32,000 bases of DNA. Source: Planctomycetales bacterium. Its GTDB lineage: Bacteria; 4484-113; JAFGCY01. A program made the position numbers and the translations under genes. The DNA lies in assembly GCA_022646745.1 (NCBI GenBank), contig CP060262.1:2760001-2792000 (forward strand), written 5' to 3'. The notes beneath the pieces are model-generated. The model made no database searches. It had not been told where the DNA came from and was given only the letters and a program-made list of their open reading frames with translations. Below, piece after piece: positions 1,587-15,307 of this stretch (position 1 is its first letter; every line of letters begins with the position of its first letter).

Positions 1587-3842
1587 TCAGAACAGGCTGC
1601 TGTCCAGCCAGGCCAGCACGTTTTGCAGCACATTATGCCGCTGGATCGGGTCCGGAGTGAACTGCGCCTCGCTGTAGCTCCAGCCGATCACCCACAGCTT
1701 GGCCGGCCCGTTGTTGTGGCTGTAGGTCCCGCCAAAGCCGATATTGGAATCCGGTGCGGTTTCCATGCCGTAGCTGAAGCACAGCCAGAATGGCGGATCA
1801 GCATCCGGGTAGGCCATGCCCGGGATGAAGTCCGGGTGGGTCGCACCGTTCGAGTTGATCGTGTCATAGATGATCGCACCCTGGATACGCTGCCCGATGC
1901 GGCAGGTCGAGGGCTGAAGGCCTGAGGAGCCCGCTCCGCTGTACTGCTCGGCAGCCGTCGGGTCAATCCGGATCAGTGAAGGGGTCGCACTCTGGTTCAG
2001 CAGGCATACGGGGCTGATCGGGAAACTCATTCCGCCGGCATCAATCAGTTCCTCATCAGTTGCGGTGCCGAATGCCCAGGAGAACGGGCGGCTGGATCCA
2101 CCTTCCACGATGGTGTCGTTCTGCAGGTCCATGTTGTACTTGGAACTGAATCCGGGCTGGCTGCTGAAGTCGCCAGTAAATTGATGGTTCTGGCTGAGCA
2201 GCAGGGTCGGGATGCCTGCATCGAGGATGCCGAGGAAGTCCACCTTCTCATCGTCGGTCCAGTTGCGCGGCCAGTTCTGGATCGGATCTCCGGGACCGGG
2301 ACCACCATGGTTCCAGATCACGACGCTGAAGCCCTGGTCGACAGCCACCTGGCTGATGCCGACACTGTAACCACCGACGACATAGCTGGCACCAAGCGTG
2401 TCCAGGTCGTCCGTCAGTGCGATGAAGTTGGCAGTGAATTCATTGCCCGGCCCAGCGCCATTCCACTGGTCGGACACCAGCAGGATGTCGGCTGCCGGAT
2501 TCACGGTGACGAACTTCGTGATGGAATCAGTGGCCCCGGCATTGTCTGTCACCGTCAGCGTGATTGCCTTGAGCCCGACTGATTCGAAGATGTGCGGGAA
2601 GATCAGCTTGCCCGGATCGGTGCTGGTGGCGGTTGTGCCGTCGCCAAAGTCAAACATCCATTCCGCGATCCCGTCATCCGCATCCGTCGAGGGCCCGGCG
2701 TTGAAATTGACCTGCAGGGGGACTGCACCACTCGTCACATTCATGCTGAACTGGGCAACGGGCGGGTGGTTCAGGATGTTGATGAAGCCGACCTGGGTCT
2801 TCTCCGTACCGCTGCGGACCTCGATCTGGTGCTCTCCGAAGCTGGTTCCGGAGGGCACGCTGAAGCGGATCAGCGGGTCTGTGTAGATGATGTAGGCCTC
2901 GGAGCTGGCAACGTCCTTGCCGTCCATCACGATGATGTTGTTAGGTCCCTGGGCATCCCCGAAGTTGGCACCGGAAATCTCAAAGGCCTGCTCGCTGTAG
3001 CGCGAGTAAGGATTGATTTCAGTTATGTACGGGCTCTGGCAGGTGAACTGCTGCAGGGGGAAGGCCGGCACGCCGTTGATCCACACCTTTACTCGCCCGA
3101 CCGTGGCTCCGAAGGGCACTTCCACCAGGATCTGCGTGTTGCTCCAGCTCAGGATGTTCGCTTCAATGTCGACGATTTCCATCGAAGGTGTTGTCTGGTC
3201 CGGGTTCCACTCGGTGCCGACGAAGGTCACGCTGTCAATGCTTGCATCGAAGATCCCGAAGCGCACGCCCTCGACAATGATCTGGTCGCCAACAAAGCCC
3301 TGGAAGGCGCTGAGGCTGTTCACCTGGTGCTGGCTGATGTTGACGGTCACTTCCTCGGACAGCACTCCCTCATCGCCACTGTCGTTGATGGCGCTGAACC
3401 GGTAGTACCAGGTTTCGCCGAAGTTGAGATCAAAACCGGCGCCCTTTGGATCGATGTGGCTGTACTGCTGCCCGAAGGGGATGATCGTGGCCGGATAGAC
3501 CGTCGCATTGCCCTCGCCATCATCGCCGAATTCCTCGGATACCAGCCACAGGGAGCTGTCACCACGCATGGAATCCAGGATAGGCTCATTGGAGCGGTAG
3601 ATGTGGTAGCCGGTGATGTCCTCGTCGGCTCCATCCGGTACCGGATCCCAGCTCAAGAGGATGCCGCTCGGCAGGCCGCTGGCATCTCGCTGGACCTCGC
3701 CAGATGCACTGCCTTGCTGCTCTGGTCCGATCTGGGGCTGGCCCTTGCCTGCATCAGGCTGCGGTTGCGATCCAGGCCCGCAGGAATAGGACAGCGCCAG
3801 CAGGCATGCCAGTGATATCAGCTTCAGGTATCTAGCAGTCAT
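1587..3842 (-). CDS. Large secreted (possibly lipid-anchored) multidomain surface protein: FN3-like, 2x IPT/TIG-like, PKD, plus a ~300-aa unrecognised C-terminal domain
   Basis: 751-aa ORF. N-terminal signal MTARYLKLISLACLLALSYS-C with a Cys after the hydrophobic core. GYHIYRS...WYYRFSAIN resembles FN3. ITEINPYS...ISGANFG resembles IPT/TIG. WMFDFGDGT...TLTVTDNAGATD is a PKD signature. SD-like GAGGA lies 6 nt upstream of the ATG. It is a tandem paralog of 3968..6235. Confidence 0.85.
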   Translation of the reverse strand: MTARYLKLISLACLLALSYSCGPGSQPQPDAGKGQPQIGPEQQGSASGEVQRDASGLPSGILLSWDPVPDGADEDITGYHIYRSNEPILDSMRGDSSLWLVSEEFGDDGEGNATVYPATIIPFGQQYSHIDPKGAGFDLNFGETWYYRFSAINDSGDEGVLSEEVTVNISQHQVNSLSAFQGFVGDQIIVEGVRFGIFDASIDSVTFVGTEWNPDQTTPSMEIVDIEANILSWSNTQILVEVPFGATVGRVKVWINGVPAFPLQQFTCQSPYITEINPYSRYSEQAFEISGANFGDAQGPNNIIVMDGKDVASSEAYIIYTDPLIRFSVPSGTSFGEHQIEVRSGTEKTQVGFINILNHPPVAQFSMNVTSGAVPLQVNFNAGPSTDADDGIAEWMFDFGDGTTATSTDPGKLIFPHIFESVGLKAITLTVTDNAGATDSITKFVTVNPAADILLVSDQWNGAGPGNEFTANFIALTDDLDTLGASYVVGGYSVGISQVAVDQGFSVVIWNHGGPGPGDPIQNWPRNWTDDEKVDFLGILDAGIPTLLLSQNHQFTGDFSSQPGFSSKYNMDLQNDTIVEGGSSRPFSWAFGTATDEELIDAGGMSFPISPVCLLNQSATPSLIRIDPTAAEQYSGAGSSGLQPSTCRIGQRIQGAIIYDTINSNGATHPDFIPGMAYPDADPPFWLCFSYGMETAPDSNIGFGGTYSHNNGPAKLWVIGWSYSEAQFTPDPIQRHNVLQNVLAWLDSSLF

Positions 3843-3967: not shown

Positions 3968-6235
3968 CTAAGGCAGGGTCAGGCTGCTGTCCAGCCAGGC
4001 CAGCACGTTCTGCAGGATGTTCAGCCGGCTGGCTCCCGTCGGTGAGATCTCGCTGTAGCTCCAGCCGATCACCCACAGCCGCGCCGTACCGTTCGTATGG
4101 CTGTAACCTCCGCCACTGAAGCCGATGTTGCTGTCCGGCGCGGTGGTCAGCCCGTGGCTGTAACACAGCTCGAAGGGATGTGCATCATTGGCCACCAGGC
4201 CGGGGATGAAGTTTGCATTGATGTCCGTACCGATCAGCGATGTGTCCACCGCGAGGCCCATCTGGATCCGGTTGTTGGCTATGTTGATCGCGGTCGGGAC
4301 GTTGCCGGAGCTGCCCGGCCCGTTGTACTGCTCCGCGGCCGTCGTGCTCAGGAACACGCCGCCCGGGAAGGATGCGCCCTTCAGGCAGATCGGCGAGCTG
4401 GGGATGCTGTCCGCCGCATCTGAATAGGTGATGTCAGTCGGCGCACCGAACATCCAGGTGAACGGGCGGCTGCCGCCGGGTTCCTGGATGCGGTCAGTCT
4501 GCTTGGTCAGGCCATACAGCGCGGACCAGTCGTTGCCGCTGGTGTCATCGCCACTGTACTGGTGGTTCTGGCTGATCAGCAGCAAGTCGATCCCCGCGTC
4601 GAGGACGGTTCGCAGGTCCGTCTTCTCGTCCTCGCTCCAGTTGCGCGGCCAGTCCTGGATCGGGTCGCCGGGGCCGGGGCCGCCACGCATCCAGATCACG
4701 ACCTTGACGCCGTTGTCAATCGCGACCTGGCCGATGCCGACGGAGTAACCGCCGGAGATGTAGTCCAGGTCCAGCGCCACGACGTCATCGCGCAGCGCCT
4801 GCACGTTGGGAACGTAGTTGTTGCCCACGCCCTGTCCGTTGTCAATGTCCTCGATCAGCATCACCTCAGCAGCCGCCAGGGCGTTGACCGTCTTCTGCTC
4901 GCTGTCCTCCTGGCCGCTGCCGTCCTCCACGACCAGCACCACGTCATAGCTGCCGGCTGCGCTGTAGATGTGCGAGAAGGTCGCATCCTCGCCCTGCAAC
5001 TTGACGGCTGGCGGGCTGCCGTCGCCGAAGTCCATCGTGTACTTGGCGATCGGGCCCTCAACGTCGCTTGAACCGTTGGCATTGAAGTTGATCTGCACCG
5101 GCACCTTGCCGCTCGTCTTGTTCATGCTGAACGAGGCGACGGGCAGGCGGTCCTTCAGGAACATGTAGCCCGAGTTGCTGCGTACGCCGTTGGACTCGAC
5201 CTGGATCTCCACCTCGCCGAAGGCGGTGCCCTGCTTCAGCTTCAGCGTGATGCTGGCGAATGTGTAGATGCTGTAGTTGGCCGCTGCATCCTGGTCCTGG
5301 TCATTGGCGACCACGAAGTTCGTGCCGCTCTGCTCGGTGCCGAAGTTGGCACCTTGGATCTGCAGGTTCTGGTCGAGGAAGCGCTCATAGGGAGTGATCG
5401 CCGTGATGTACGGGTCTGAATTCTCAAACAGGTCGAAGGACTGGGCCGTCAGCCCGTCAATGCGCACCTTGACACGGCCCTTGGTCGTGTTGGCCGGCAC
5501 CTCGAAGGTGATCTCCGTCGGCTGCCAGTCGATGATCGTCGCGTTGATGTCGATCTGGTCGAATTCATGCGTGGTGTCGTTCCACTGGTTGCCGACAATG
5601 ATCACTTCGTCAATGGTGTCGTCATATGTCCCGAAGTTGAGGCCCTCGATCACCACCTGGTCGCCGATGCCAGCAGTGGCCGGAGTCACATCCGTGATCG
5701 AATGCATCGCCACGTCCACCTTGACCTCGGGGCTGAGTGCGCTTTCATCACCGCTTTCATTGACCGCGCTGATGCGGTAGTACCAGGACTCACCGATGTT
5801 GAGCGTGAAGTCCATGTCAGCCAGCTTCGTGTAGCTCAGCTTGGCCCCGCCGCCCGGGACTGAATGGGGGAAGATCGTGTTGTTCCCGCCGCCATCGGCG
5901 AGGAAGCCGGCATCCTCCAGCCACAGCGCACTGTCGCCACGGGAAGCATCCGGGATGCTTGCTGATGACTGGTAAATGTGGTAGCCGGTGACGGCCTCGG
6001 CCGCGTTGTCAGCGACCGGGTCCCAGCTCACCTGGATGCCGGACAGCTTGCCGCTGGCATCACGCAGCAGCAGCGCGTCCAGGAAGTCATCAGTGGCGGG
6101 GGCCTGCGGCGGGTTGCCGCCATCGTTGCCAACAGGGGGATTGCCCGCGGAGCCGCCGGAGCAGGACTGGACTGCCAGTGCCAGCAGGCAGGCGATCAGG
6201 GGCAGCAGGGTAAGTCTTCTCATTGCCTTCTTCAA
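3968..6235 (-). CDS. Large secreted (possibly lipid-anchored) multidomain surface protein, paralog of 1587..3842
   Basis: 755-aa ORF with the same domain order: signal plus LALAVQS-C, GYHIYQS FN3-like, two IPT/TIG-like segments, PKD (YTMDFGDGS...VLVVEDGSGQED), and the same C-terminal domain ending LQNVLAWLDSSL. The track start at 6235 is TTG; an in-frame ATG at 6223 (MRRLTLL...) is an equally plausible start. Confidence 0.85.
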   Translation of the reverse strand: MKKAMRRLTLLPLIACLLALAVQSCSGGSAGNPPVGNDGGNPPQAPATDDFLDALLLRDASGKLSGIQVSWDPVADNAAEAVTGYHIYQSSASIPDASRGDSALWLEDAGFLADGGGNNTIFPHSVPGGGAKLSYTKLADMDFTLNIGESWYYRISAVNESGDESALSPEVKVDVAMHSITDVTPATAGIGDQVVIEGLNFGTYDDTIDEVIIVGNQWNDTTHEFDQIDINATIIDWQPTEITFEVPANTTKGRVKVRIDGLTAQSFDLFENSDPYITAITPYERFLDQNLQIQGANFGTEQSGTNFVVANDQDQDAAANYSIYTFASITLKLKQGTAFGEVEIQVESNGVRSNSGYMFLKDRLPVASFSMNKTSGKVPVQINFNANGSSDVEGPIAKYTMDFGDGSPPAVKLQGEDATFSHIYSAAGSYDVVLVVEDGSGQEDSEQKTVNALAAAEVMLIEDIDNGQGVGNNYVPNVQALRDDVVALDLDYISGGYSVGIGQVAIDNGVKVVIWMRGGPGPGDPIQDWPRNWSEDEKTDLRTVLDAGIDLLLISQNHQYSGDDTSGNDWSALYGLTKQTDRIQEPGGSRPFTWMFGAPTDITYSDAADSIPSSPICLKGASFPGGVFLSTTAAEQYNGPGSSGNVPTAINIANNRIQMGLAVDTSLIGTDINANFIPGLVANDAHPFELCYSHGLTTAPDSNIGFSGGGYSHTNGTARLWVIGWSYSEISPTGASRLNILQNVLAWLDSSLTLP

Positions 6236-6352
6236 CCTCTTAGGCTGGGATAGCCACGCGGTCGAAGCACTCCATCGGCCGCGTGGCGATTATACCTTTC
6301 TGTATTCCTCACGCACTTTTCACGGATATCCGCAGTGTTTTGATCCGGGGGT

Positions 6353-6381
6353 TTGAGATTCGCCCCCAAAACCTGTATACT
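6353..6381 (+). promoter_or_regulatory. Sigma70-like promoter for the spsF-like gene
   Basis: TTGAGA (6353-6358), 17-nt spacer, TATACT (6376-6381). The ~120-nt leader contains a perfect 8-bp hairpin gcacggga/tcccgtgc at 6419-6441. Confidence 0.45.
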
Positions 6382-6507
6382 CTGGATGTTGGTTGGTGAT
6401 ACACAAATCGAATTATTGGCACGGGACACTTCTTCCCGTGCTTCTGACATTCCAACTTCTCCCTCACTTTCACGAACAAATTCCATCCCCTTGGAGGCAT
6501 TCTGCAC

Positions 6508-7233
6508 ATGAAGAAAGTTGCAATTCTGCAGGCTCGTCTGGACAGTTCACGGTTCCCTGGCAAGGTTCTCGCTGATCTCAAGGGAAGGCCCGTGATCGCG
6601 CACATCATTGACCGCCTCAAGGCTTCCAGTGAGCTTGATGAGGTCTGCGTGGCCATCCCCTCCGAGCACAAGGAGGACAAGCTGGCCGAGGCCCTCGCAG
6701 CCATGGACGTCACCGTGGTGCGTGGCCATGCCTCGGATGTGCTGGCCCGATATATCCAGGCCGCTTATGAAACCAAGGCCGACATCGTGGTGCGCGCCAC
6801 CGGGGACAACCCGCTCGTGGCCACTGAAGTGATCGACCAGCAGGTTTCCATGCTTGCCGGTGAGCCGGAACTCGACTACGTGATCACCGAGGGTATGTCC
6901 GTCGGCCTGACCACTGAGACGTTCACCCTCAAGACCCTTGAGAAGCTGGACTTCCTCGCCAAGCATCCCGACCACCGTGAGCACGTGACGCTGTACCTGC
7001 GCCGCAACCCCGGTCCGTTCGTGATGCGCCGCCTGGATCCCCCGTCACACCTGGCCAATGCGAACTACCGCCTGACCCTGGACACGGAGGAGGACTACAA
7101 GGTGCTCTCCGCGATCTATGACAAGCTCTACAGTGGCAACAGCATCGAACTGAAGGATGTCTTCAAGCTGCTGGAGGACGACTCCGAGCTCAACCTGGCT
7201 GCCCGCCAGCAGGTTTCCCTGGCCGCCGGCTAG
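6508..7233 (+). CDS. SpsF-like cytidylyltransferase (CTP_transf_3 / COG1861 type)
   Basis: 241 aa. N-terminal VAILQARLDSSRFPGKVL...GRPVI matches the cytidylyltransferase P-loop-like motif of SpsF/NeuA-type enzymes. RLTLDTEEDY matches the conserved C-terminal motif of SpsF homologs. SD GGAGG lies upstream. Confidence 0.8.
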   Translation: MKKVAILQARLDSSRFPGKVLADLKGRPVIAHIIDRLKASSELDEVCVAIPSEHKEDKLAEALAAMDVTVVRGHASDVLARYIQAAYETKADIVVRATGDNPLVATEVIDQQVSMLAGEPELDYVITEGMSVGLTTETFTLKTLEKLDFLAKHPDHREHVTLYLRRNPGPFVMRRLDPPSHLANANYRLTLDTEEDYKVLSAIYDKLYSGNSIELKDVFKLLEDDSELNLAARQQVSLAAG

Positions 7234-7253
7234 GAGCAATTCGACTTCAACTG

Positions 7254-7290
7254 CGCCGCAGGGACCGCTGTGTCCTGCGGCGCTGTGCTT
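7254..7290 (+). terminator. Terminator-like hairpin after the spsF-like gene
   Basis: gcgccgcagggac / gtcctgcggcgc forms a ~12-bp stem with one bulge and a 5-nt loop, followed by tgtgctttctc. The U-tract is weak. Confidence 0.45.
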
Positions 7291-7332
7291 TCTCGTGGGA
7301 TAAGTGCGCGGGTAATGGGATACTAGGAACTG

Positions 7333-8541
7333 ATGGCCAAACCAGAACAACCGGAGGGAGTGCAGTCCTCCAGCGTGCAGTCGGCCTACTTTGACAACGC
7401 CGCCACCAGTTACCCCAAGCCTCCAGGGGTAGTGGCTGCCATCCGCGACTGCCTCGACCAGTCGCTGACCGTCGCCCGCAGCACGCACCGTGCCCCCTTC
7501 CGCGCCGATGACGTATTGCGCCGCTGCCGGTCCCGGCTTTCCAGCTACTTCGGGGGCTCCGCAGCGGAAGAGATCATCTACACATTCAGCGCGACTGACA
7601 GCCTGAACATCGCCATCAACGGCCTGGTACCGGATGGATCACATGTGCTGGTCAGTCCGCTGGAGCACCATTCCGTAATGCGTCCGCTGCACCACCGCAG
7701 GCGGGCAGGCCGGGTGGAGTTCGACGTCCTGCCGGCTGACAGCCTGGGGTATGTCGACATCGATTCCATTCGGAGCTTGCTCAGGCCCGAAACCCGCTGC
7801 ATCATCATCAACTGGGTCAGCAATGTCAGCGGCGTGATGCAACCTGCAGCAGAGATCGGCAGGATTGCCAGCGAACTCGGTATCGACTTCCTGCTTGATG
7901 CCAGCCAGGCCGGCGGTTCACATCCAATTGATGTGCAGCAGCTGGCGTGCACGGCGATGACCATGCCCGGGCACAAGTCGATGATGTCCATCCCCGGTAC
8001 CGGCATCCTCTACCTTCGGCGGGACCGCGAGATCGAACCATGGCGTATCGGTGGCACCGGCCACCGCAGCGAGCTGCTCTTCCAGCCGGAGGAAAGGCCC
8101 CACCGCTATGAGTCAGGCACTCCGAATGTGGCCGGTATTGTCGGACTGGATGCGGCGATGGACTGGTTCGAGCAGACAGGCATCGAGAACATCAGCACAC
8201 ACAGTAAGGCCATCACCAGCTGCCTGTGGGATGGCCTGTCAGCCATTGATGGAATCTCGCTGATTGGTCCCTCGCCGCAGCATCCACGTGGCTCGGTGAT
8301 CAGCTTCACTGTGGACGGAATAGACCCGATCGCATTCAGCGAGGTGCTTTCCAGCCACTTCGGCATAAGCACCCGCCCCGGACTGCACTGCGCACCATCA
8401 GCTCACAGGCACTACGGGACCTTGGACTCCGGCGGGACCGTCCGCCTCAGTGTCGGCTACTTCACTTCGGAAGCTGAAGTGGACTACTGCCTGTCCAGCA
8501 TCGCTGAAGCCCTGGCTGGATTTGCCGCCAGTAGCGCTTGA
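7333..8541 (+). CDS. Class-V PLP enzyme, cysteine desulfurase family (TIGR01977-like)
   Basis: 402 aa. AYFDNAATSYPKP at the N-terminus. PLP-lysine context GHKSMMSIPGTGILY. Active-site Cys context RPGLHCAPSAHRHYGTL..GTVRLSVGYFTSEAEV. Confidence 0.85.
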   Translation: MAKPEQPEGVQSSSVQSAYFDNAATSYPKPPGVVAAIRDCLDQSLTVARSTHRAPFRADDVLRRCRSRLSSYFGGSAAEEIIYTFSATDSLNIAINGLVPDGSHVLVSPLEHHSVMRPLHHRRRAGRVEFDVLPADSLGYVDIDSIRSLLRPETRCIIINWVSNVSGVMQPAAEIGRIASELGIDFLLDASQAGGSHPIDVQQLACTAMTMPGHKSMMSIPGTGILYLRRDREIEPWRIGGTGHRSELLFQPEERPHRYESGTPNVAGIVGLDAAMDWFEQTGIENISTHSKAITSCLWDGLSAIDGISLIGPSPQHPRGSVISFTVDGIDPIAFSEVLSSHFGISTRPGLHCAPSAHRHYGTLDSGGTVRLSVGYFTSEAEVDYCLSSIAEALAGFAASSA

Positions 8542-8566
8542 CACTTTCAGGCGCAGACGGGATATT
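8538..8566 (+). promoter_or_regulatory. Sigma70-like promoter upstream of proS
   Basis: TTGACA (8538-8543), 17-nt spacer, GATATT (8561-8566). A second TATAAT lies at 8661-8666 without a good -35. Confidence 0.45.
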
Positions 8567-8711
8567 TATTGTCTCCGTTGATAGTTTGTTGATAACTGTC
8601 TGCGGCCGGGTCGAGGGTTGAGTCTGTCACGCCAAAGCTGCGCCTTTGCATGCGCTGAGCTATAATCCCGGCGGCAAACTTCCCTCAGACGGGATCAATA
8701 AAGGAAAAGCG

Positions 8712-10187
8712 TTGGCGAAGAACGACGACAAACGGTTCATTACACCCAAGAGCGAGAATCCGTCACAGTGGTATACGGACGTGATTCTGCAGGCTGAGCT
8801 CGCGGACTATTCACCGGTCCGCGGCTGCCAGGTGTACCGACCGTACGGCTTCGCCATCTGGGAGAAGCTCAAGAAGCTCCTCAACGACCGCATCATCGCC
8901 ACGGGGCATGAGAACACCTATTACCCGATGTTCATCCCCAAGAGCCTGCTGGACCGTGAGGCCGAGCACGTGGAGGGCTTTGCCCCCGAGGTGGCCTGGG
9001 TCACCAAGGGCGGCGGCAAGGACCTCGATGAGCCGCTCGCAATCCGCCCGACCAGTGAGGTGATCATCGGCGTGATGTGGGCCAAGTGGCTGCAGAGCTA
9101 TCGCGACCTGCCTTACCTGCATAACCAGTGGGCCAATGTCGTGCGCTGGGAGAAGGCCACTCGTCCCTTCCTGCGCACACTGGAATTCCTCTGGCAGGAG
9201 GGCCATACCGCGCATGCCTACGAGCAGGAGGCCCGGGAGGAAACCGCGCGCATGCTGGAGCAGTACAGCCAGTTCGCCTGCGAGGACCTGTCCCTGCATG
9301 TGCTGAATGGCATCAAGAGCGACAGCGAGAAGTTCGCCGGCGCCGTTGAGACCTGGGGCATTGAAGCGATGATGCCCGACGGCAAGGCCCTGCAGAGCGG
9401 CACCAGCCACTTCCTCGGCCAGAACTTCGCGAAGGCCTACGATGTGAAGTTCCTTGCGGAGGACAATACCGAGCAGTTCGCCTGGACCACCAGCTGGGGC
9501 GTCAGCCACCGCATCATGGGCGGCATGCTGATGGTGCATGGAGATGACAAGGGACTGATCCTGCCGCCCAAGGTAGCGCCGATCCACATTGCGATCGTGC
9601 CCATCACCCGCGGTGACAACACTGACGAAGTCGTGGCGGCCTGCCAGAAACTGGCTGCCGGTCTGCGCCGGGAAAGCTACAACGGCGAGGCGATCAGCGT
9701 GAAGGTGGACGACCGAGACGGCTTCCGTCCCGGCTACAAGTTCGCGCACTGGGAGCTGCGCGGAGTGCCCTTCCGCATGGAGGTCGGCCCGCGTGACATC
9801 GAGGAGAACGTCGCGATCCTCGTTGACCGCATCAGCGGAGAAAAACGCAAAGTGGACGTCAATTATGAAACGGGTTCCATTGGCGGCGTGTCTATAGCTA
9901 AGGAACTGGATGAGTTCCAGGCTCAGCTGTATGAACGCAGCAGGAGCGAGGTGGAGTCGCGCATCATCGAGGTCGCATCCTACGACGAATTCAAGGATGT
10001 GATTTCAAGCGGTCGCGGTTTCGTCCTTGCGCCGTGGGACGGCAAGGCCTCGACTGAGGCCCGCGTGAAGGAAGAAACCAGCGCCACAACGAGAGTTATG
10101 GCGCCGCAAAAACCCGATAATGGTGTAAAATGCCTGTTTTCGGGGGATGTTGCGCAATATATGGCGTATTTCGCCAGTTCATACTAG
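8712..10187 (+). CDS. proS: Prolyl-tRNA synthetase, archaeal/eukaryote-like (no editing insertion) type
   Basis: FITPKSENPSQWYTDVILQAELADYSPVRGCQVYRPYGFAIWE and later class-II motifs match the Thermus-type ProRS. The track start (TTG 8646) adds 22 residues with no homology. The in-frame TTG at 8712 follows AAGGA (8701-8705) and gives an N-terminus the length of known ProRS (MAK...TP.S..FS.WY). Confidence 0.9.
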   Translation: MAKNDDKRFITPKSENPSQWYTDVILQAELADYSPVRGCQVYRPYGFAIWEKLKKLLNDRIIATGHENTYYPMFIPKSLLDREAEHVEGFAPEVAWVTKGGGKDLDEPLAIRPTSEVIIGVMWAKWLQSYRDLPYLHNQWANVVRWEKATRPFLRTLEFLWQEGHTAHAYEQEAREETARMLEQYSQFACEDLSLHVLNGIKSDSEKFAGAVETWGIEAMMPDGKALQSGTSHFLGQNFAKAYDVKFLAEDNTEQFAWTTSWGVSHRIMGGMLMVHGDDKGLILPPKVAPIHIAIVPITRGDNTDEVVAACQKLAAGLRRESYNGEAISVKVDDRDGFRPGYKFAHWELRGVPFRMEVGPRDIEENVAILVDRISGEKRKVDVNYETGSIGGVSIAKELDEFQAQLYERSRSEVESRIIEVASYDEFKDVISSGRGFVLAPWDGKASTEARVKEETSATTRVMAPQKPDNGVKCLFSGDVAQYMAYFASSY

Positions 10188-10212: not shown

Positions 10213-11385
10213 ATGAAAGTCTACTGCAATGGGTTGGTCGGAGGTCTCTTGGCGGCTGCCATGGTCTGTCTTCCGATCATGGCTTCTGCTCAGTCCACTG
10301 ACGGTTACCGCTACGAGGACAAGGTGCACGCCGCGACAGCGATCGTCACTCCCTCGGTTGTCGCCGTGGAAACGCGTTTTAAGGAACCCACCCTTGACAG
10401 CGAGTACGCCTACTGGTCGTACACCCGTGGGGCCCGTCCGCTCTACGGCCTGTTCGGTTCCGGTTTCATCTACAAGGATCCCGAGTACGTGATCACGAAC
10501 ACCTTCATCACACAGGATGCTGAGTTCGTGCGCGTGATCCTCAACGACGGCCGCTCATTCAAGGCGGAAATCGTCGGTGAGAGTGATGCGTACAAGCTTG
10601 CCGTGCTGAAGGTCGAATGGGGTCCGGACTACAATCCGCTGGGCGTCCAGGTCGGCGACAGTGAGAAGATGAAGCTCGGCCAGCCGATGGCGATTGTCGG
10701 GAAGTCCAACAACAACCACGACACCTTCGCCACCTCCGGCATCATCAGCGCCATCCGCAAGGAGATCCCGAGCGCTGAGGGTGACCAGCCCACCAATGAG
10801 TTCATCCAGTTCGATGCGGCCTGGGAGCACACCTTCTACGGCGCTCCGATCGTTGACGTGGACGGCAAGGTGATCGGCATGGTCGATCGCAGTGTCACGG
10901 CACACGGCCTCAACCTCGGTGTGCCGATCAACGAGATCGTGTTCATGGCCGACCGCATCATCAACGGCGAGGCCGTTGACACACTGTGGGGTGTTGAATC
11001 CCAGTTCGTCAGCCCTGGCCTGCAGAAGGCTGGCTACGTGCCCTGGGAGTTCGACCTTGACGGTAACGGCACCGCTGAGCCGCTTGAGATCGGCGAGTGG
11101 GTTTCCTTCGTGGATGCCAACTCCCCGGCCGAGATCGGTGGCCTGCGTGCTGGTGACATCATCTACCAGATTGATGAGACCACGCTTGAGTTCCACTACA
11201 ACTACACCCGTGCCCGCCGTGAGTTCATCCCCGGCCAGCTCGTGATCGTGCGCTTCCTCCGCAAGAACGACATGACCGGCGAGTGGGAGAAGAAGGTTGC
11301 ACAGGTGCAGATCGTGGAAGACACGAGTGACGAGGATGATGAAGAGGGCGGCGACAGCGGTCCTTCCGGCAACCCCCACGGTTAA
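10213..11385 (+). CDS. Secreted HtrA-like trypsin-fold + PDZ protein with all three catalytic residues substituted (predicted pseudoprotease)
   Basis: 390 aa with a signal peptide and strong SD AAGGAGG. It aligns by eye to DegP blocks. GSGFIYKDPEYVITNTFIT has His->Phe. SDAYKLAVLKV has Asp->Lys. FDAAWEHTFYGAPIV replaces the GNSGGP box, Ser->Tyr. PDZ-like GGLRAGDIIYQID. Acidic C-terminal tail. Confidence 0.85.
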   Translation: MKVYCNGLVGGLLAAAMVCLPIMASAQSTDGYRYEDKVHAATAIVTPSVVAVETRFKEPTLDSEYAYWSYTRGARPLYGLFGSGFIYKDPEYVITNTFITQDAEFVRVILNDGRSFKAEIVGESDAYKLAVLKVEWGPDYNPLGVQVGDSEKMKLGQPMAIVGKSNNNHDTFATSGIISAIRKEIPSAEGDQPTNEFIQFDAAWEHTFYGAPIVDVDGKVIGMVDRSVTAHGLNLGVPINEIVFMADRIINGEAVDTLWGVESQFVSPGLQKAGYVPWEFDLDGNGTAEPLEIGEWVSFVDANSPAEIGGLRAGDIIYQIDETTLEFHYNYTRARREFIPGQLVIVRFLRKNDMTGEWEKKVAQVQIVEDTSDEDDEEGGDSGPSGNPHG

Positions 11386-11448
11386 GCAAGTCCGCCGGCA
11401 GCCCCGGTTGGCCGGCACTGATCACCTGAACCTGATTTGGAGTAGGGC

Positions 11449-12621
11449 ATGATGAAGAAACTGATTGCAATGACTGTCATCGCGGTAATGGCCTGCATGG
11501 CTGCCGCCTGGGCCCAGGATGAACCCTCGATGAGCATCGAGGACGTCATCAGCAAGGTGAAGAAGGGCGTCATCCGTGTGCAGGGCATAGAGCTCGGAGC
11601 ACCGACGATCGGCAACTGGGGCGGTGGCTCAGGATTCGTGTTCGAGGTCGACTACGACACGCACACGGCCTATGCCATCACCAATCACCACGTGAGTGGC
11701 AATGCCGCCGCTTCGGCCGTGACTTTCTGGGATGGTGCCACTTACAAGGCACGCCACGTAGCCACTGAGCCCGGCATCGATGTCTGCCTGCTTGAGATCT
11801 ATGACATTCCGGATGAGCGTGACCTGCCGGAAGACGAGAAGACGATCGTTCCCGTGGTGCTCGGTGACAGTGATGCGGTTCGCATCGGTGAGCTCGGCCT
11901 TGCAATGGGTAACCCCGGCGATGGCCAGGATGCAGTCAATATTGACCGCTCCAACCCTTACGAGACCTTCCTGCTGCTGACCACCGCCACCCAGGGTGTT
12001 GTCACCGGCCGTGACTGGCCGGTGGAGTTCCTGCTTGGTATCCACAGGCAGAACCGTGGTTCCCTGGGCAACCAGTACGGTACCAACTTTGACTATGCAT
12101 TCCGCATGGCGACTGCCATCAACGGTGGTAACTCCGGCGGCCCGCTCTTCAACCAGCAGGGTGAAGTGATCGGCATCAACTTCTACGGTGGTTCATGGGC
12201 GCTTGGCCAGAACCAGAACCATGCCATCCCGATCAACCTTGCGAAGGACTTCGTGTTCCAGATCCTCGAAAAGGGCAAGTTCGAGAAGCCCTGGACTGGC
12301 ATGGATATCCTCTTCCCGAGCTGGATCGGCCCGGATGAGTACACCGAATTCGCCGAGAAGTATCGCCCTGATTACATTGAGGTCTATGGCGTGCGTCGTG
12401 ACAGCCCGGCTGCGCGAGCCGGCCTGAAGCAGGGTGACGTCATCATGTCAGTTGATGGCCAGACCTTCGCTGACCCTGAGAAGCTGCGCCTGTATATCTT
12501 CAGCCAGGAGATCGGCAACGAGCTCGAGATCACCATCAAGCGCAATGGCAAGATCATGAAGGAGCCGGTTTTCGTGGAAGTCAGTCCCAAGCGCACCTAC
12601 GACGCGGAGTTCTCCGTCTAG
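11449..12621 (+). CDS. Secreted HtrA-like serine protease with one PDZ domain (triad intact)
   Basis: 390 aa with a signal peptide. AITNHHV (His), GIDVCLLEI (Asp), INGGNSGGPLFN (Ser). PDZ-like SPAARAGLKQGDVIMSVDGQ. Ends ...DAEFSV. Confidence 0.9.
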   Translation: MMKKLIAMTVIAVMACMAAAWAQDEPSMSIEDVISKVKKGVIRVQGIELGAPTIGNWGGGSGFVFEVDYDTHTAYAITNHHVSGNAAASAVTFWDGATYKARHVATEPGIDVCLLEIYDIPDERDLPEDEKTIVPVVLGDSDAVRIGELGLAMGNPGDGQDAVNIDRSNPYETFLLLTTATQGVVTGRDWPVEFLLGIHRQNRGSLGNQYGTNFDYAFRMATAINGGNSGGPLFNQQGEVIGINFYGGSWALGQNQNHAIPINLAKDFVFQILEKGKFEKPWTGMDILFPSWIGPDEYTEFAEKYRPDYIEVYGVRRDSPAARAGLKQGDVIMSVDGQTFADPEKLRLYIFSQEIGNELEITIKRNGKIMKEPVFVEVSPKRTYDAEFSV

Positions 12622-12641
12622 TCAACTGCTGAGGTCATCTG

Positions 12642-13808
12642 ATGAGGACAGTTCTTTTCACAGTATGTGTGGTTGTAATGCTGGCAGGCCAGGCCCTGGC
12701 CCAGCAGGACAGCGCGCTCAGTGTCGAGGACATCGTCAACACCGTGAAGAAGGGTGTTGTCAAGGTGCAGGGCATCGATATCGGCGGTCCAACCAGCGCA
12801 GGCTGGGGCGGCGGCAGTGGTTTCCTGTTCGAGATTGACTACGACACCGGCCTCGGTTACGCGATCACGAACCACCATGTAAGCGGTTCGTCCTCCATTT
12901 CGGCAGTGACGTTCTGGGATGGCGCGGCCTACAAGGCCCGCCTTGTCGCCACGGAGCCGGGCATTGACATTGCCCTGCTCGAGGTCTACGACCTTCCCGA
13001 TGAGAGTGACCTGCCGGACAGCGAGAAGACCATTATCCCGGTGGTGCTCGGTGACAGTGACACTGTCCCTATCGGAGCACTGGGCATGGCAATGGGAGCA
13101 CCCGGAGATTTCAACGACGCCATCAACATTGACCGTTCCAATCCTTACGATGCCGGCATGCTGATGCAGACCGTCACCACGGGCGAAGTGAGCGGACGTG
13201 ACTGGCCGATCGAGTTCCTGCTTGGCATCAACCGCCAGGCCCAGTCCGATCTCGGCCGCCAGTACGGCACGAACTTCGACTACGCATTCAAGGTGTCCAC
13301 TCCGATCAACCCCGGCAACTCGGGTGGTCCGCTTTTCAACAACAGCGGTGAAGTGATTGGCATCAACTTCTGGGGCGGTTCGTTCCAGATGGCGCAGAAC
13401 TCGAACCATGCGATCCCGATCAACCTTGCCAAGGACTTTGTCTTCCAGGTGCTGGAGAAAGGTCGTTTCGAGAAGCCCTGGACCGGGATGGACATCATCT
13501 TCCCGAGCTGGGTCAGCGTGGACGAATACACTGAATTCACTGAGAAGTACCGCCCCGACTATATTGAAATCTTCAATATCCGGCGGGACAGTCCGGCCAG
13601 CCGTGCCGGCCTGAGGAAGGGTGATATCATCGTCAGTGTCGACGGCCAGCAGTTCACGGATCCTGAGAAGCTCAGGCTCTATGTGTTCTCGCAGGACATC
13701 GGCAATGAGCTGGAGCTTGTGGTCAAGCGCGACAACAAGATAATGAAGGAGCCCATCTTCGTGGAAGTGGGCGTTAAAAGGACTTATGACTCCGAGTTTT
13801 CGGTCTAA
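12642..13808 (+). CDS. Secreted HtrA-like serine protease with one PDZ domain (triad intact); close paralog of 11449..12621
   Basis: 388 aa with a signal peptide. AITNHHV, GIDIALLEV, INPGNSGGPLFN. PDZ-like SPASRAGLRKGDIIVSVDGQ. Roughly three quarters identical to the preceding gene by eye. Ends ...DSEFSV. Confidence 0.9.
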   Translation: MRTVLFTVCVVVMLAGQALAQQDSALSVEDIVNTVKKGVVKVQGIDIGGPTSAGWGGGSGFLFEIDYDTGLGYAITNHHVSGSSSISAVTFWDGAAYKARLVATEPGIDIALLEVYDLPDESDLPDSEKTIIPVVLGDSDTVPIGALGMAMGAPGDFNDAINIDRSNPYDAGMLMQTVTTGEVSGRDWPIEFLLGINRQAQSDLGRQYGTNFDYAFKVSTPINPGNSGGPLFNNSGEVIGINFWGGSFQMAQNSNHAIPINLAKDFVFQVLEKGRFEKPWTGMDIIFPSWVSVDEYTEFTEKYRPDYIEIFNIRRDSPASRAGLRKGDIIVSVDGQQFTDPEKLRLYVFSQDIGNELELVVKRDNKIMKEPIFVEVGVKRTYDSEFSV

Positions 13809-13833
13809 TCAGGTAGGGTTTAGGAGATATGGC

Positions 13834-15054
13834 ATGCGGGCTTTTAGCTTGGCAGTAATCTTTGCGGCGCTCCTCGCGGGGCAGGCCCTCGCGCAGGACT
13901 ACGGTGCAATTGACGTAGTGGATGAGGTTCGCAACAGCGTGGTGTCAATCGACATCAACTCGCTGGCGGTGAACTATGCCACCCTCGACATGTCCACCCA
14001 GAGCCTGCTCACCAGGCAGATCACCGGCGTTGTCTACACGGAGAACGGCTACATCCTCACGGACAGCAACTCCATCGACGACGGTATCTACATCAACGTG
14101 CGCTTCGAGGACGGCCACGAGTATGAGGGTGAGTTCATCGGTGCCGACCTGCAGTACGGCGTCGGCGTTATCAAGATTGATCCCGACCCGGACCATGACC
14201 TCAAGCCGATCAAGATGCGCGGTGAGCTGTACAACTCCGACATCGGCTCCCTGCCCTATGAGCAGGGTGAGCCCGTGCTGGCCATCGGTTATTCCGGCGG
14301 CTACGGCGGCACCGTAACGAGCGGCATCATCTCCGCGATCCGTACCTTCCGCAACAGCCGCAAGATCCTCATCCCGAACATGATCCAGGCAGACTGCCCG
14401 ATCAACGTCGGCAACGAGGGCTGCCCGCTGTTCAACGACAAGGGTGAAGTGATTGCATTCCATGACATCCAGGGTGGTGGCGGTGGCCTGCAGCGCATCA
14501 GCTTCTTCTCACCGGCATGGATCATCAAGCGCGTCGCTGACGAGATCATCGCCAACCATGAAAGCGAGCGTCCCGCCAACAGTGAGGATGTGGTCTGGCA
14601 CCCCTGGCTGGGCATCCAGCCCTACGCCGGTTCCCAGGGTGCCTCCGGCCTGCGTGCGCAGTCCGATGACCTGAAGATGTTCTTCGGCATGCCCGACCAG
14701 TACTGGGATGTCGGTATCCTGCTCAATGACGTCTGGCGTGAGGGCCCGGCGGCTGAGTACGGCCTGCGACGCATGGACTGGCTGATGACGGTCACCGTTG
14801 TCAACCAGGATGCCAACACGGGCGAGGACACGGTCAAGACTCCCTACCAGCTGATCAAGACCGTCCAGCAGCTTGAGGTGCTGGTGTCCACCGCCGAGCG
14901 TGGCGACATCTTCATCTTCGGTGTGCTGCGCAATGGCAACATGTTCGACGTGGAGGTCACCATTGGCCAGCACCCGGCCGCGACCGCCTACCTGCCGGAT
15001 GCATCGTCCGACCTGACCCGTTCCGACCTGGCCCGCATGACTGAGTACTTCTAG
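13834..15054 (+). CDS. Secreted HtrA-like trypsin-fold + PDZ-like protein with all three catalytic residues substituted (predicted pseudoprotease)
   Basis: Start moved from the track position 13786 to ATG 13834, which follows AGGAG (13822-13826) and yields signal peptide MRAFSLAVIFAALLAGQALA. GYILTDSNSI has His->Asn. LQYGVGVIKID has Asp->Gly. INVGNEGCPLFN has Ser->Glu. The glycine-rich insert GGGGG and TSGIISAIR are conserved with gene 1. Confidence 0.85.
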   Translation: MRAFSLAVIFAALLAGQALAQDYGAIDVVDEVRNSVVSIDINSLAVNYATLDMSTQSLLTRQITGVVYTENGYILTDSNSIDDGIYINVRFEDGHEYEGEFIGADLQYGVGVIKIDPDPDHDLKPIKMRGELYNSDIGSLPYEQGEPVLAIGYSGGYGGTVTSGIISAIRTFRNSRKILIPNMIQADCPINVGNEGCPLFNDKGEVIAFHDIQGGGGGLQRISFFSPAWIIKRVADEIIANHESERPANSEDVVWHPWLGIQPYAGSQGASGLRAQSDDLKMFFGMPDQYWDVGILLNDVWREGPAAEYGLRRMDWLMTVTVVNQDANTGEDTVKTPYQLIKTVQQLEVLVSTAERGDIFIFGVLRNGNMFDVEVTIGQHPAATAYLPDASSDLTRSDLARMTEYF

Positions 15055-15080
15055 GCCGGAACTCCAATTCCGAAATGAAA

Positions 15081-15106
15081 GGCCACCCTGCGGGGTGGCC
15101 TTTTTT
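15081..15106 (+). terminator. Rho-independent terminator closing the HtrA-like operon
   Basis: ggccaccc-tgcg-gggtggcc is a perfect 8-bp stem followed by tttttt. It lies 26 nt after the stop. Confidence 0.85.
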
Positions 15107-15307
15107 GTTTCTGTCCACACGTATGCAGAACCGTTCGCCGATATACAGAGGTGAACCTTCGAGTCGATCTGGAGGCAGCAGTAACGAATCACTGCTGAGT
15201 TGGCGTTGGTCCGCACCAGCTGAAGCAGGACACCATGGATGGGTGGGGTACTGCTGCTGGCTGCGGATCTGGCCCGGGGAGACTGGTGGTTGCCAGACTG
15301 GACTGGC

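Follow-up and report, generated by a model that had tools for sequence, protein, structure and literature searches.

Four closely spaced, co-oriented open reading frames on the plus strand, at positions 10213–15054 of the window (the whole 32,000-nucleotide stretch of planctomycete DNA analyzed here), each encode one HtrA-type protein, and sequence comparison supports the outer two, g1 and g4, as true, ancient and selectively maintained pseudoproteases co-encoded with the active paralogs g2 and g3. Across relatives, the conserved unit is A (dead), B (active, in one or two copies) and C (dead), so that the "2+2" arrangement emphasized in a preliminary description of this DNA is a derived form. 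The cassette combines an HtrA fold with triad loss, purifying selection, conserved synteny and conserved C-terminal tails. On balance, we favor a three-component HtrA system in which the dead A and C most likely co-assemble with B as its binding or regulatory partners.

Table 1. Features of the cassette and its upstream flank, in window coordinates (g4 residues numbered from the ATG at 13834)
Feature	Positions	Strand	Basis
Sigma-70-like promoter candidate, TTGACA-17-GATATT, upstream of proS	8538–8566	+	Consensus match only
proS, archaeal/eukaryote-type prolyl-tRNA synthetase	8646–10187	+	Pfam tRNA-synt_2b, HGTP_anticodon, ProRS-C_1
g1, paralog A, HtrA-fold pseudoprotease, one PDZ	10213–11385	+	Profile, alignment, fold
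g1 triad columns: F98, K128, Y209	10504–10506, 10594–10596, 10837–10839	+	Alignment
g2, paralog B1, active-type HtrA, one PDZ	11449–12621	+	Profile, alignment
g2 tail, EFSV	12607–12618	+
g3, paralog B2, tandem duplicate of g2 (70% identical)	12642–13808	+	Profile, alignment
g3 tail, EFSV	13794–13805	+
g4, paralog C, HtrA-fold pseudoprotease, divergent PDZ	13834–15054 (ORF from 13786)	+	Profile, fold
g4 triad columns: N79, G109, E195	14068–14070, 14158–14160, 14416–14418	+	Alignment
g4 invariant C-terminal EYF	15043–15051	+
Intrinsic-terminator-like hairpin, 12-bp stem with 7 G-C pairs, T-rich tail	15077–15114 (hairpin 15077–15104)	+

All four proteins matched Pfam Trypsin_2 above its gathering score (E-values 1.9e-19 to 3.3e-25) as well as HtrA/Do-type NCBIfam models, and these matches, along with alignments to DegP, DegQ and DegS, bear out the DegP-alignable trypsin fold previously claimed for them. 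Their scores of 130–161 bits against TIGR02037 ("Do family serine endopeptidase") lie under its curated cutoff of 416, and each carries a single PDZ domain where the DegP/DegQ type has two; hence none is a DegP/DegQ equivalog. The PDZ-like C-terminal domain described for every product was likewise recovered: Pfam gave strong PDZ_2, PDZ_6 and PDZ matches in g2 and g3, a PDZ_6 match barely over the cutoff in g1, and no PDZ match in g4, whose divergent PDZ is shown only by profile–profile alignment and fold. Specifically, the hhalign alignment of g4 with B extends across the latter's PDZ (329 columns, probability 99.95%), and in Foldseek the g4 model aligned over ~360 columns to protease+PDZ1 structures. 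The AF2 model of g1 (pLDDT 81, pTM 0.74) matched DegQ, DegP, Deg1 and AlgW over ~340–358 columns, and the top Foldseek matches of the g1 and g4 models taken together were DegQ, DegP, DegS, AlgW and MucD. In all four N-termini, a K/R n-region is joined by a hydrophobic core of 12 residues (mean Kyte–Doolittle 2.5–3.1) and an A-x-A/Q-like site, and by this inspection and hydropathy the products are putatively secreted. Expanded loops separate GNPG from the catalytic Ser in g2.

The triad columns were located by phmmer against DegQ, DegP and DegS, by MAFFT alignment with ordinary HtrAs and by hhalign, all of which were concordant. The triad is intact in g2 (H81, D111, S229) and g3 (H79, D109, S227) and replaced at every column in g1 and g4 (Table 1), in agreement with the preliminary assignment; because all alignment methods agree, the catalytic residues of the outer genes are not simply present in shifted positions. 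As they do not retain His-Asp-Ser, g1 and g4 are HtrA-fold homologues rather than family peptidases, and A and C are predicted to be unable to cleave peptide bonds by the Ser-His-Asp mechanism. The same state extends across both families. In A, the His or Ser of the triad is kept in none of 64 members, and the Ser column varies among Ile, Thr, Val, Met and Tyr (Thr in 19 of 64, ~30%). In C, Ser is likewise kept in 0 of 64, with Glu (54) or Gln (10) in its place inside a highly conserved GN[EQ]G[CG]P loop; Gly occupies the Asp column in 62 of 64, and the His column varies widely, holding N, R, Q, E, A, T, S, D and others. Every one of the 17 A, 24 B and 19 C genes drawn from loci obeys this dead/active rule.

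Each cassette gene has its own Shine-Dalgarno sequence, including a strong AAGGAGG ribosome-binding site for g1, and the intergenic gaps are 20–63 nt, with one terminator-like hairpin beginning 22 nt past the g4 stop codon. The start of g4 is better placed at the ATG at 13834 than at 13786, because the former is preceded by an AGGAG Shine-Dalgarno and avoids overlap with g3; in relatives, the start of proS falls at the position equivalent to ~8712. The cassette had been described as a single operon closed by a terminator, and the hairpin bears out its end, but its start most likely lies at proS rather than at g1. Since proS ends 25 nt from g1, no plus-strand terminator was found between the two, and a promoter-like site precedes proS (a kind of site no commoner in this region than in shuffled sequence), the transcription unit probably runs proS-g1-g2-g3-g4 and terminates at the hairpin. 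A search for Rfam elements or leaders was negative, and the only repeats are those arising from the g2/g3 duplication. Long antisense ORFs over the cassette (e.g., 10555–11418, minus strand) were treated as high-GC artefacts. Besides proS, the neighboring genes encode an MFS transporter, a phosphoribosyltransferase and glycosyltransferases.

The order proS-A-B(-B)-C is kept in relatives ranging from ~90% to ~32–38% identity, and a Candidatus Riflebacteria contig carries it with A ~36% and B ~45% identical. Directly upstream of A lies proS in all 14 loci showing that side, and B precedes C in 15 of 17. On two short contigs (L098 and L106), A is followed directly by C without an intervening B, and B-only clusters also exist (L087); B presumably does not depend on having A and C as neighbors. 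C loci were collected in a metagenome scan with a two-motif gapped DNA pattern, 12 of whose 24 matches were chance occurrences without an HtrA gene; when genome contigs were searched with the C-family alignment, using automatically chosen patterns of which one was generic, the matches listed comprised only ordinary HtrAs (≤34% identity) and no cassette loci. The g2/g3 duplicate recurs in a ~90% relative (L083) and is absent from L081, L082, L091, L099 and L105; by sequence, it is a lineage-specific duplication, and B has been doubled independently in some lineages.

A and C are under purifying selection as strong as that acting on the active genes and on proS, with dN/dS values of 0.093 for A, 0.108 and 0.103 for B, 0.133 for C and 0.091 for proS. 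Each dead family spans ~60 clusters at 40–56% identity in which the dead state is fixed. Pairwise correlations among the A, B and C distance matrices (r = 0.88–0.93) exceed those with proS (0.66–0.83), and the partial correlations given proS are 0.77–0.90, values drawn from few and partly redundant loci (e.g., L099 and L111) by mirror-tree and partial Mantel statistics, which are known to be inflated.

A magnetosome link was also considered, prompted by weak MamE/MamO model matches, a weak MamF_MmsF neighbor in L087 and magnetosome clusters reported from Riflebacteria, and was rejected. Like MamO, both g1 and g4 do have an HtrA-type protease domain whose triad is degenerate. The NCBIfam MamO and MamE models, however, gave 18–65 bits against a cutoff of 800 (for MamO, NF040961, 30.9 bits in g1 and 18.4 in g4), no Mam families were found in the window or in L087, and Pfam detected no TauE domain in the four proteins.

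The extreme C-termini set B and C apart from ordinary HtrAs. Those of B are near-invariant (…D-[SA]-E-F-S-Φ), as are those of C (…[ED]-[YF]-F), which sit on a variable linker; positional entropy there is 0.07–0.35 bits in B and 0.24–0.64 bits in C, compared with 2.5–3.9 bits in ordinary HtrAs. A tails are instead rich in Gly and His: g1 ends in a disordered acidic tail finishing GNPHG, and in the family at large, 58% have His within the last 10 residues and 50% an acidic run, versus 6% and 1% of ordinary HtrAs. At the start of the PDZ, the Φ-G-Φ carboxylate-binding-loop region ranks with the most conserved segments of all three families. By sequence, the B and C tails resemble C-terminal peptides bound by HtrA PDZ domains, and the PDB matches 3gdv, 3gdu, 6ew9 and 7co7 are HtrA PDZ domains bound to YQF, YRF or decapeptide C-termini; the x-[YF]-F of C is similar, not identical, to the DegS ligand motif Y-x-F. 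In the monomer model of g4, the linker has low and the C-terminal tip moderate (~70) confidence, and the model thus indicates no docking place for the tail.

Under the reading we favor, A (dead), B (catalytic, doubled here as g2/g3) and C (dead) would be three anciently diverged, periplasmic (secreted) paralogs, with A and C each preserving the whole HtrA architecture of a trypsin-fold domain and one peptide-binding PDZ. HtrAs are built from trimers, within which an active site is controlled by regulatory loops of the neighboring subunit; A and C most likely co-assemble with B and, in such a setting, would contribute substrate binding and allosteric control without catalysis. The free C-termini of B (…E-F-S-Φ-COOH) and C (…[YF]-F-COOH) would probably dock into the PDZ of a partner or of their own chain, tethering the complex or setting how active it is, comparable to the activation of DegS by OMP Y-x-F-COOH peptides. 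Physical association of A, B and C, tail–PDZ docking and a regulatory role are the most likely interpretation, and PDZ–protease crosstalk in trans has been reported in engineered HtrA2 heterotrimers (bioRxiv 10.1101/2021.10.04.462974). The strict synteny, the correlated evolution of A, B and C and the PDZ-ligand-like C-termini conserved on B and C lend hetero-oligomerisation indirect support. More tentatively, and with less confidence than we place in co-assembly as such, A, B and C might form obligate asymmetric heterotrimers, or cages made of these, having one catalytic and two non-catalytic types of subunit, in which the EFSΦ tail of B and the [YF]F tail of C dock in trans into partner PDZ domains, hard-wiring assembly and activation. 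If true, no earlier HtrA machine from nature would share this construction, which recalls ClpP/R or the proteasome in its dedicated dead subunits and has its "activating peptides" built in.

Several other explanations deserve weighing against co-assembly. The outer genes could be decaying duplicates, pseudogenes in the making, a notion that triad loss alone would suggest and that we give practically no credence: the reading frames are intact and have ribosome-binding sites, dN/dS (0.09–0.13) equals that of proS and the active genes, the dead state is fixed over ~60 clusters per dead family (~64 counted as members), and the AF2 models are confident. The preliminary view of g1 and g4 as maintained pseudoproteases is upheld on these grounds. 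It is also conceivable, if unlikely, that A and C act on their own as chaperone or holdase HtrAs, each as a homo-oligomer that binds unfolded envelope proteins and leaves them uncut, co-expressed with B for triage and sharing no complex with it. Their retained fold, PDZ and peptide-binding loop speak for this, as do the B-only clusters and the A–C adjacency without B, and DegP with a mutated active-site Ser keeps its chaperone activity. It leaves unexplained, however, why two different dead paralogs have stayed in fixed order around B over long divergence, why B and C have invariant PDZ-ligand-like tails, and why the rates of A, B and C are correlated.

We regard as less probable still that A and/or C took up a MamO-like function unrelated to proteolysis by B, such as the binding of a metal or small ligand by the remodelled active site or by the His/Gly-rich acidic tail of A, and that their linkage to B is historical. 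MamO itself is a precedent (PMC4794232), and the conserved Glu/Gln at the Ser position of C within its conserved loop, along with the His and acidic runs of A tails, would be compatible with such a role. Yet the proteins carry no additional domain, TauE or otherwise, no neighboring gene points to magnetosomes or metal handling, and neither the MamO nor the MamE model scores near its cutoff; moreover, interchange of Glu with Gln speaks against a catalytic or metal-ligand carboxylate, and the strict A-B-C order favors a shared function. A non-canonical enzyme, with Thr as nucleophile in A or Glu acting in C, could be imagined from the Thr found in the Ser column of A members and the well-conserved L1 loop of C, but seems very improbable: g1 itself has Tyr rather than Thr at that column, the column varies across A, His is absent from all 64 A members, and C shows wide variation at the His column along with alternation of Glu and Gln. 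Such variability does not suit a set of catalytic residues.

Protein quality control by allosteric oligomers has a textbook example in the HtrA proteases, whose inter-subunit communication is known largely from homo-oligomers and artificially mixed trimers. A natural system of one active and two dead HtrAs would show how subunits divide binding, gating and cutting, and the apparently built-in PDZ ligands add to its value as evolution's own experiment. The cassette would also extend the short list of functional pseudoproteases by a well-supported bacterial example. All cassette genes are labeled in databases as "S1C family serine protease" or "trypsin-like peptidase domain-containing protein," a protease label that misdescribes two out of each set of three or four.

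Among known systems, DegS and AlgW are single-PDZ HtrAs like the cassette proteins, and the g1 and g4 models fit structures of this type with target-normalised TM-scores of 0.74–0.80. Both are activated by C-terminal peptides (OMP Y-x-F-COOH and MucE WVF-COOH, respectively), the PDZ binding a free aromatic or hydrophobic C-terminus and relaying this to the protease domain of the trimer. Their ligand is a foreign, unfolded substrate, whereas the candidate ligands of the cassette, [ED]-[YF]-F in C and F-S-Φ in B, are built in. In the self-compartmentalising proteases formed by ClpP/ClpR rings and by the beta rings of the eukaryotic proteasome, dead paralogs are obligate structural subunits beside active ones; this is analogy and not homology, given the unrelated folds and ATP-dependent partners, and stoichiometric hetero-rings are experimentally established there and hypothesised for the cassette.

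The closest precedents are Deg5/Deg8 and MamO/MamE. Deg5 and Deg8 both retain the catalytic triad, their genes are not known to form an operon, and we know of no description of conserved C-terminal tails in them. The likeness lies in different HtrA paralogs forming a mixed complex in the Arabidopsis thylakoid lumen, with Deg5 as a partner of reduced domain set, just as different paralogs cooperate in the cyanobacterial HhoA/HhoB/HtrA trio (PMC4754418, PMC4877387 and general background). Magnetotactic bacteria encode HtrA paralogs together as MamO/MamE, LimO/LimE and MamE1/MamE2, one of each pair being triad-less and retained under selection; dead copies arose by duplication several times, MamO is needed non-catalytically for MamE proteolysis, and no physical interaction between MamO and MamE was detected (PMC4794232). 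Dead and active HtrA paralogs encoded together are thus already known in principle, but MamO differs in its C-terminal TauE transporter domain, its di-His metal site and its setting in the magnetosome island (PMC4794232). In the cassette, by contrast, two distinct dead paralogs, each with a PDZ, flank the active B, and PDZ-ligand-like tails are conserved on B and C. We found no description of this cassette in the literature; operon-encoded pairs of dead and active HtrAs are known, and what appears to be new is the three-paralog cassette and the conserved C-termini of B and C.

Four tandem genes for secreted HtrA-like proteins, g1–g4, lie directly downstream of proS in the window. We refer to g1 as paralog A, to g2 and g3 as paralog B and to g4 as paralog C; A and C are dead, having lost the His-Asp-Ser catalytic triad, and B is active. 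Each of the four genes has its own Shine-Dalgarno sequence, and the successive gaps from proS through g4 measure 25, 63, 20 and 25 nt. For g4, we prefer the internal ATG of the called ORF because AGGAG precedes it and overlap with g3 is thereby avoided. Given these short gaps, a promoter-like site 5' of proS and a strong hairpin with a trailing T-run after g4, the anatomy suggests that proS-g1-g2-g3-g4 is likely one transcription unit. Searches against the Rfam families returned zero matches across the whole window. The NCBI protein records for g1 (368 aa) imply that translation begins 22 codons further downstream, so that the predicted signal peptide would be lost; AAGGAGG, a strong ribosome-binding site, precedes the upstream ATG. 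The window also encodes two neighboring paralogs of ~750 aa each with TIG/IPT and PKD domains, probably cell-surface proteins, and such a pair likewise lies upstream of the cassette in L083, a relative's contig.

Features of the proS-HtrA locus in window coordinates, with the residues at the triad columns and the Φ-G-Φ loop region (Φ, hydrophobic residue)
Feature	Positions	Strand	Triad columns (His/Asp/Ser)	Φ-G-Φ loop region	Remark
TIG/IPT-PKD paralog	1587-3842	-
TIG/IPT-PKD paralog	3968-6235	-
Promoter-like site TTGACA-17-GATATT	8538-8566				upstream of proS
proS, archaeal-type ProRS	8646-10187				stops 25 nt ahead of g1
g1 (A)	10213-11385	+	Phe98/Lys128/Tyr209	LWGVE	ORF call
g1 codons absent from NCBI records	10213-10278	+
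g1 C-terminus	11290-11385	+
g2 (B)	11449-12621	+	His81/Asp111/Ser229	PWTGMD	ORF call
g2 insertion	11860-12130	+
g3 (B)	12642-13808	+	His79/Asp109/Ser227		ORF call
g3 insertion	13050-13320	+
g3 L1-loop DNA	13302-13359	+
g4 (C)	13786-15054	+	Asn79/Gly109/Glu195	WHPWLGI	ORF call; preferred ATG 13834 (upstream AGGAG)
g4 L1-loop DNA	14398-14455	+
Strong hairpin, then T-run	15077-15104				directly after g4

The preliminary description of four HtrA-like genes was confirmed by the ORFs, family matches and triad columns. All four proteins matched Pfam Trypsin_2 and HtrA/Do-type NCBIfam models; because their scores fell far under the DegP, DegQ and DegS equivalog cutoffs, we classify them as divergent single-PDZ HtrAs, with N-termini resembling Sec signal peptides by inspection and hydropathy. 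Triad columns were located by phmmer residue-level alignment to solved DegQ, DegP and DegS, by MAFFT alignment with ordinary HtrAs and by profile-profile alignment. These three independent approaches gave identical columns, so that the loss in the outer genes is genuine and does not reflect residues that are present but shifted. The PDZ-like C-terminal domain proposed for all four was detected by Pfam in g1, g2 and g3, with no Pfam PDZ in g4. The g4 and g2 families nevertheless aligned in hhalign with a probability of 99.95% over 329 columns, spanning the entire PDZ, and the g4 AF2 model (pLDDT 77, pTM 0.75) superposed over ~360 columns on the protease and PDZ1 of DegS, AlgW, MucD, DegQ and DegP. 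The structure matches of the g1 model (pLDDT 81, pTM 0.74) behaved like those of g4.

In the B paralogs, ~40 extra residues separate the GNPG motif from the catalytic Ser, and the Trypsin_2 match stretches over 184 residues, against the 144 positions of the model; going by the alignment, and with loop names drawn from the HtrA literature, these insertions would fall in the LD/L3 regulatory-loop region. The L1-loop DNA of g4 is 81% identical to that of g3 over 58 nt, whereas the dead g4 and active g3 proteins are only ~22% identical overall; the local similarity probably reflects the conserved peptide PINxGNxGxPLFNxxGEVI together with codon bias.

A and C each constitute a separate family of ~60 clusters (90% clustering), with 40–56% identity among members and a sharp score gap to ordinary HtrAs. 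At 50% clustering, the C family comprises fewer than 10 representatives among 1.84 billion proteins, all of them dead. Of 64 A-family members, none keeps the catalytic His or the catalytic Ser, and 50 have Phe in place of the His. In the C family, the Ser column holds Glu (54 members) or Gln (10) and never Ser (0/64), Gly stands at the Asp column in 62 of 64, and one of 64 has His. Measured against L083, a relative of ~90% identity, dN/dS is 0.093 for g1, 0.108 for g2, 0.103 for g3 and 0.133 for g4, compared with 0.091 for proS. Were the outer genes decaying duplicates, neither these low values nor the family-wide fixed dead state (64 + 64 members) would be expected; both contradict decay, which we regard as refuted, and support the earlier proposal that the outer genes are functional pseudoproteases.

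On contigs encoding these families, the gene order is proS, dead A, active B in one or two copies, and dead C, with triads verified gene by gene (L081-L086, L088, L089, L091, L094, L099, L100, L105, L109, L111, L112). proS lies immediately upstream of A in all 14 loci with that side visible, across very deep divergence (the window plus L081-L086, L088, L089, L091, L099, L105, L111 and L112); we are not aware that ProRS and HtrA are functionally connected. In 15 of 17 loci, B stands ahead of C. The exceptions are two short metagenome contigs, L098 (Ga0209205_1003022) and L106 (Ga0315281_10302799), where C directly follows A; in some lineages B may therefore reside at another locus. Cassettes with one B are common (L081, L082, L086, L091, L094, L099, L105). 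The g2/g3 duplicate (70% identity) is common to the window and L083, and the B duplications in L085 and L088 look independent. The conserved arrangement is thus an A-B-C unit, contrary to the 2+2 set initially envisaged.

The cassette extends to a Candidatus Riflebacteria contig, L089 (MFYZ01000131); there the dead A-type gene (4685-5830) is broken by a scaffold gap of 36 N, which is the only reason why the public annotation misses it. Another contig, L087 (ENA ERZ21869578 contig_3), carries three tandem active B-like genes (4279-8173) away from proS, with all triads intact and tails reading EFS[FL], and contains no A or C gene. The trio is followed by genes for a small protein, weakly matched by MamF_MmsF, and for several unknown proteins; the NCBIfam Mam models found no match in L087.

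B-family proteins (114 compared) finish in the six-residue pattern D-[SA]-E-F-S-[VLIF], with Phe at -2 in 112 and Ser at -1 in 113. C-family proteins (62 compared) terminate in [ED]-[YF]-F, with a final Phe in 59, preceded by a variable linker of ~25 residues modeled with low confidence. The more divergent C members have GYI, YYI, NFI or SFM as their last residues. Positional entropy is 0.07–0.35 bits for the B tail and 0.24–0.64 bits for the C tail, against 2.5–3.9 in three ordinary-HtrA sets. A conserved free C-terminus carried on a variable linker is the pattern expected of a PDZ ligand in tethered form. Aromatic or hydrophobic C-termini of just this kind are known to be bound by HtrA PDZ domains, as in PDB 3gdv, 3gdu, 6ew9 and 7co7, all in the g4 structure-match list. 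The Φ-G-Φ loop region at the PDZ start is among the most conserved segments of the A, B and C families. The A C-terminus is instead disordered or of low confidence, acidic and of low complexity, and closes with a motif of Gly, Pro and His (NPHG, PPGHP, GYHH); 58% of A members have His within the last 10 residues, versus 6% of ordinary HtrAs, and metal binding or partner binding are possible roles.

A three-component HtrA system, with A and C as non-catalytic partners of B, is the best-supported reading. A mixed A/B/C hetero-oligomer is a plausible form of it: A and C would most probably sit in mixed oligomers with B, and the tails of B and C would double as intrinsic PDZ ligands that promote assembly or exert allosteric control. 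Cryptic catalysis by A or C is a rival. A and C might alternatively act as independent chaperone-only homo-oligomers, or might have undergone MamO-like neofunctionalisation unrelated to B. Across 11 loci, the evolutionary distances within A, B and C, compared pair by pair as matrices, correlate between the paralogs at r = 0.88–0.93, against 0.66–0.83 with proS, and partial correlations given proS are 0.77–0.90 (permutation p ~5e-4); as the method is inflation-prone and near-duplicate loci occur among the 11, these values are no more than supportive. In other lineages, five long chains (P0366, P0368, P0371, P0373, P0375) carry 2–4 tandem trypsin-like domains mixing intact and degenerate triads, such as HDS+ANG, HDS+YGF and RDI+SNP+HDS. 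In Rosetta-stone fashion, these chains hint at cooperation between dead and active HtrA-type domains in those lineages too.

Our literature searches found no published description of the proS-A-B-C cassette, and databases currently annotate its A, B and C proteins as generic serine proteases. What is new here is that pseudoproteases A and C and protease B form a conserved set whose tails resemble ligands. Natural HtrA hetero-oligomers are exemplified by Deg5/Deg8, and trans PDZ-protease crosstalk has been described in engineered HtrA2 heterotrimers (bioRxiv 10.1101/2021.10.04.462974). The nearest precedent is MamO/MamE: MamE activity depends on a non-catalytic contribution from MamO, a dead HtrA paralog, and MamE has repeatedly given rise to dead duplicates (PMC4794232). 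Interaction of MamO with MamE was not detectable (PMC4794232). MamO, however, has a TauE domain, a metal site and a magnetosome-island location (PMC4794232), all of which are absent from the window cassette.
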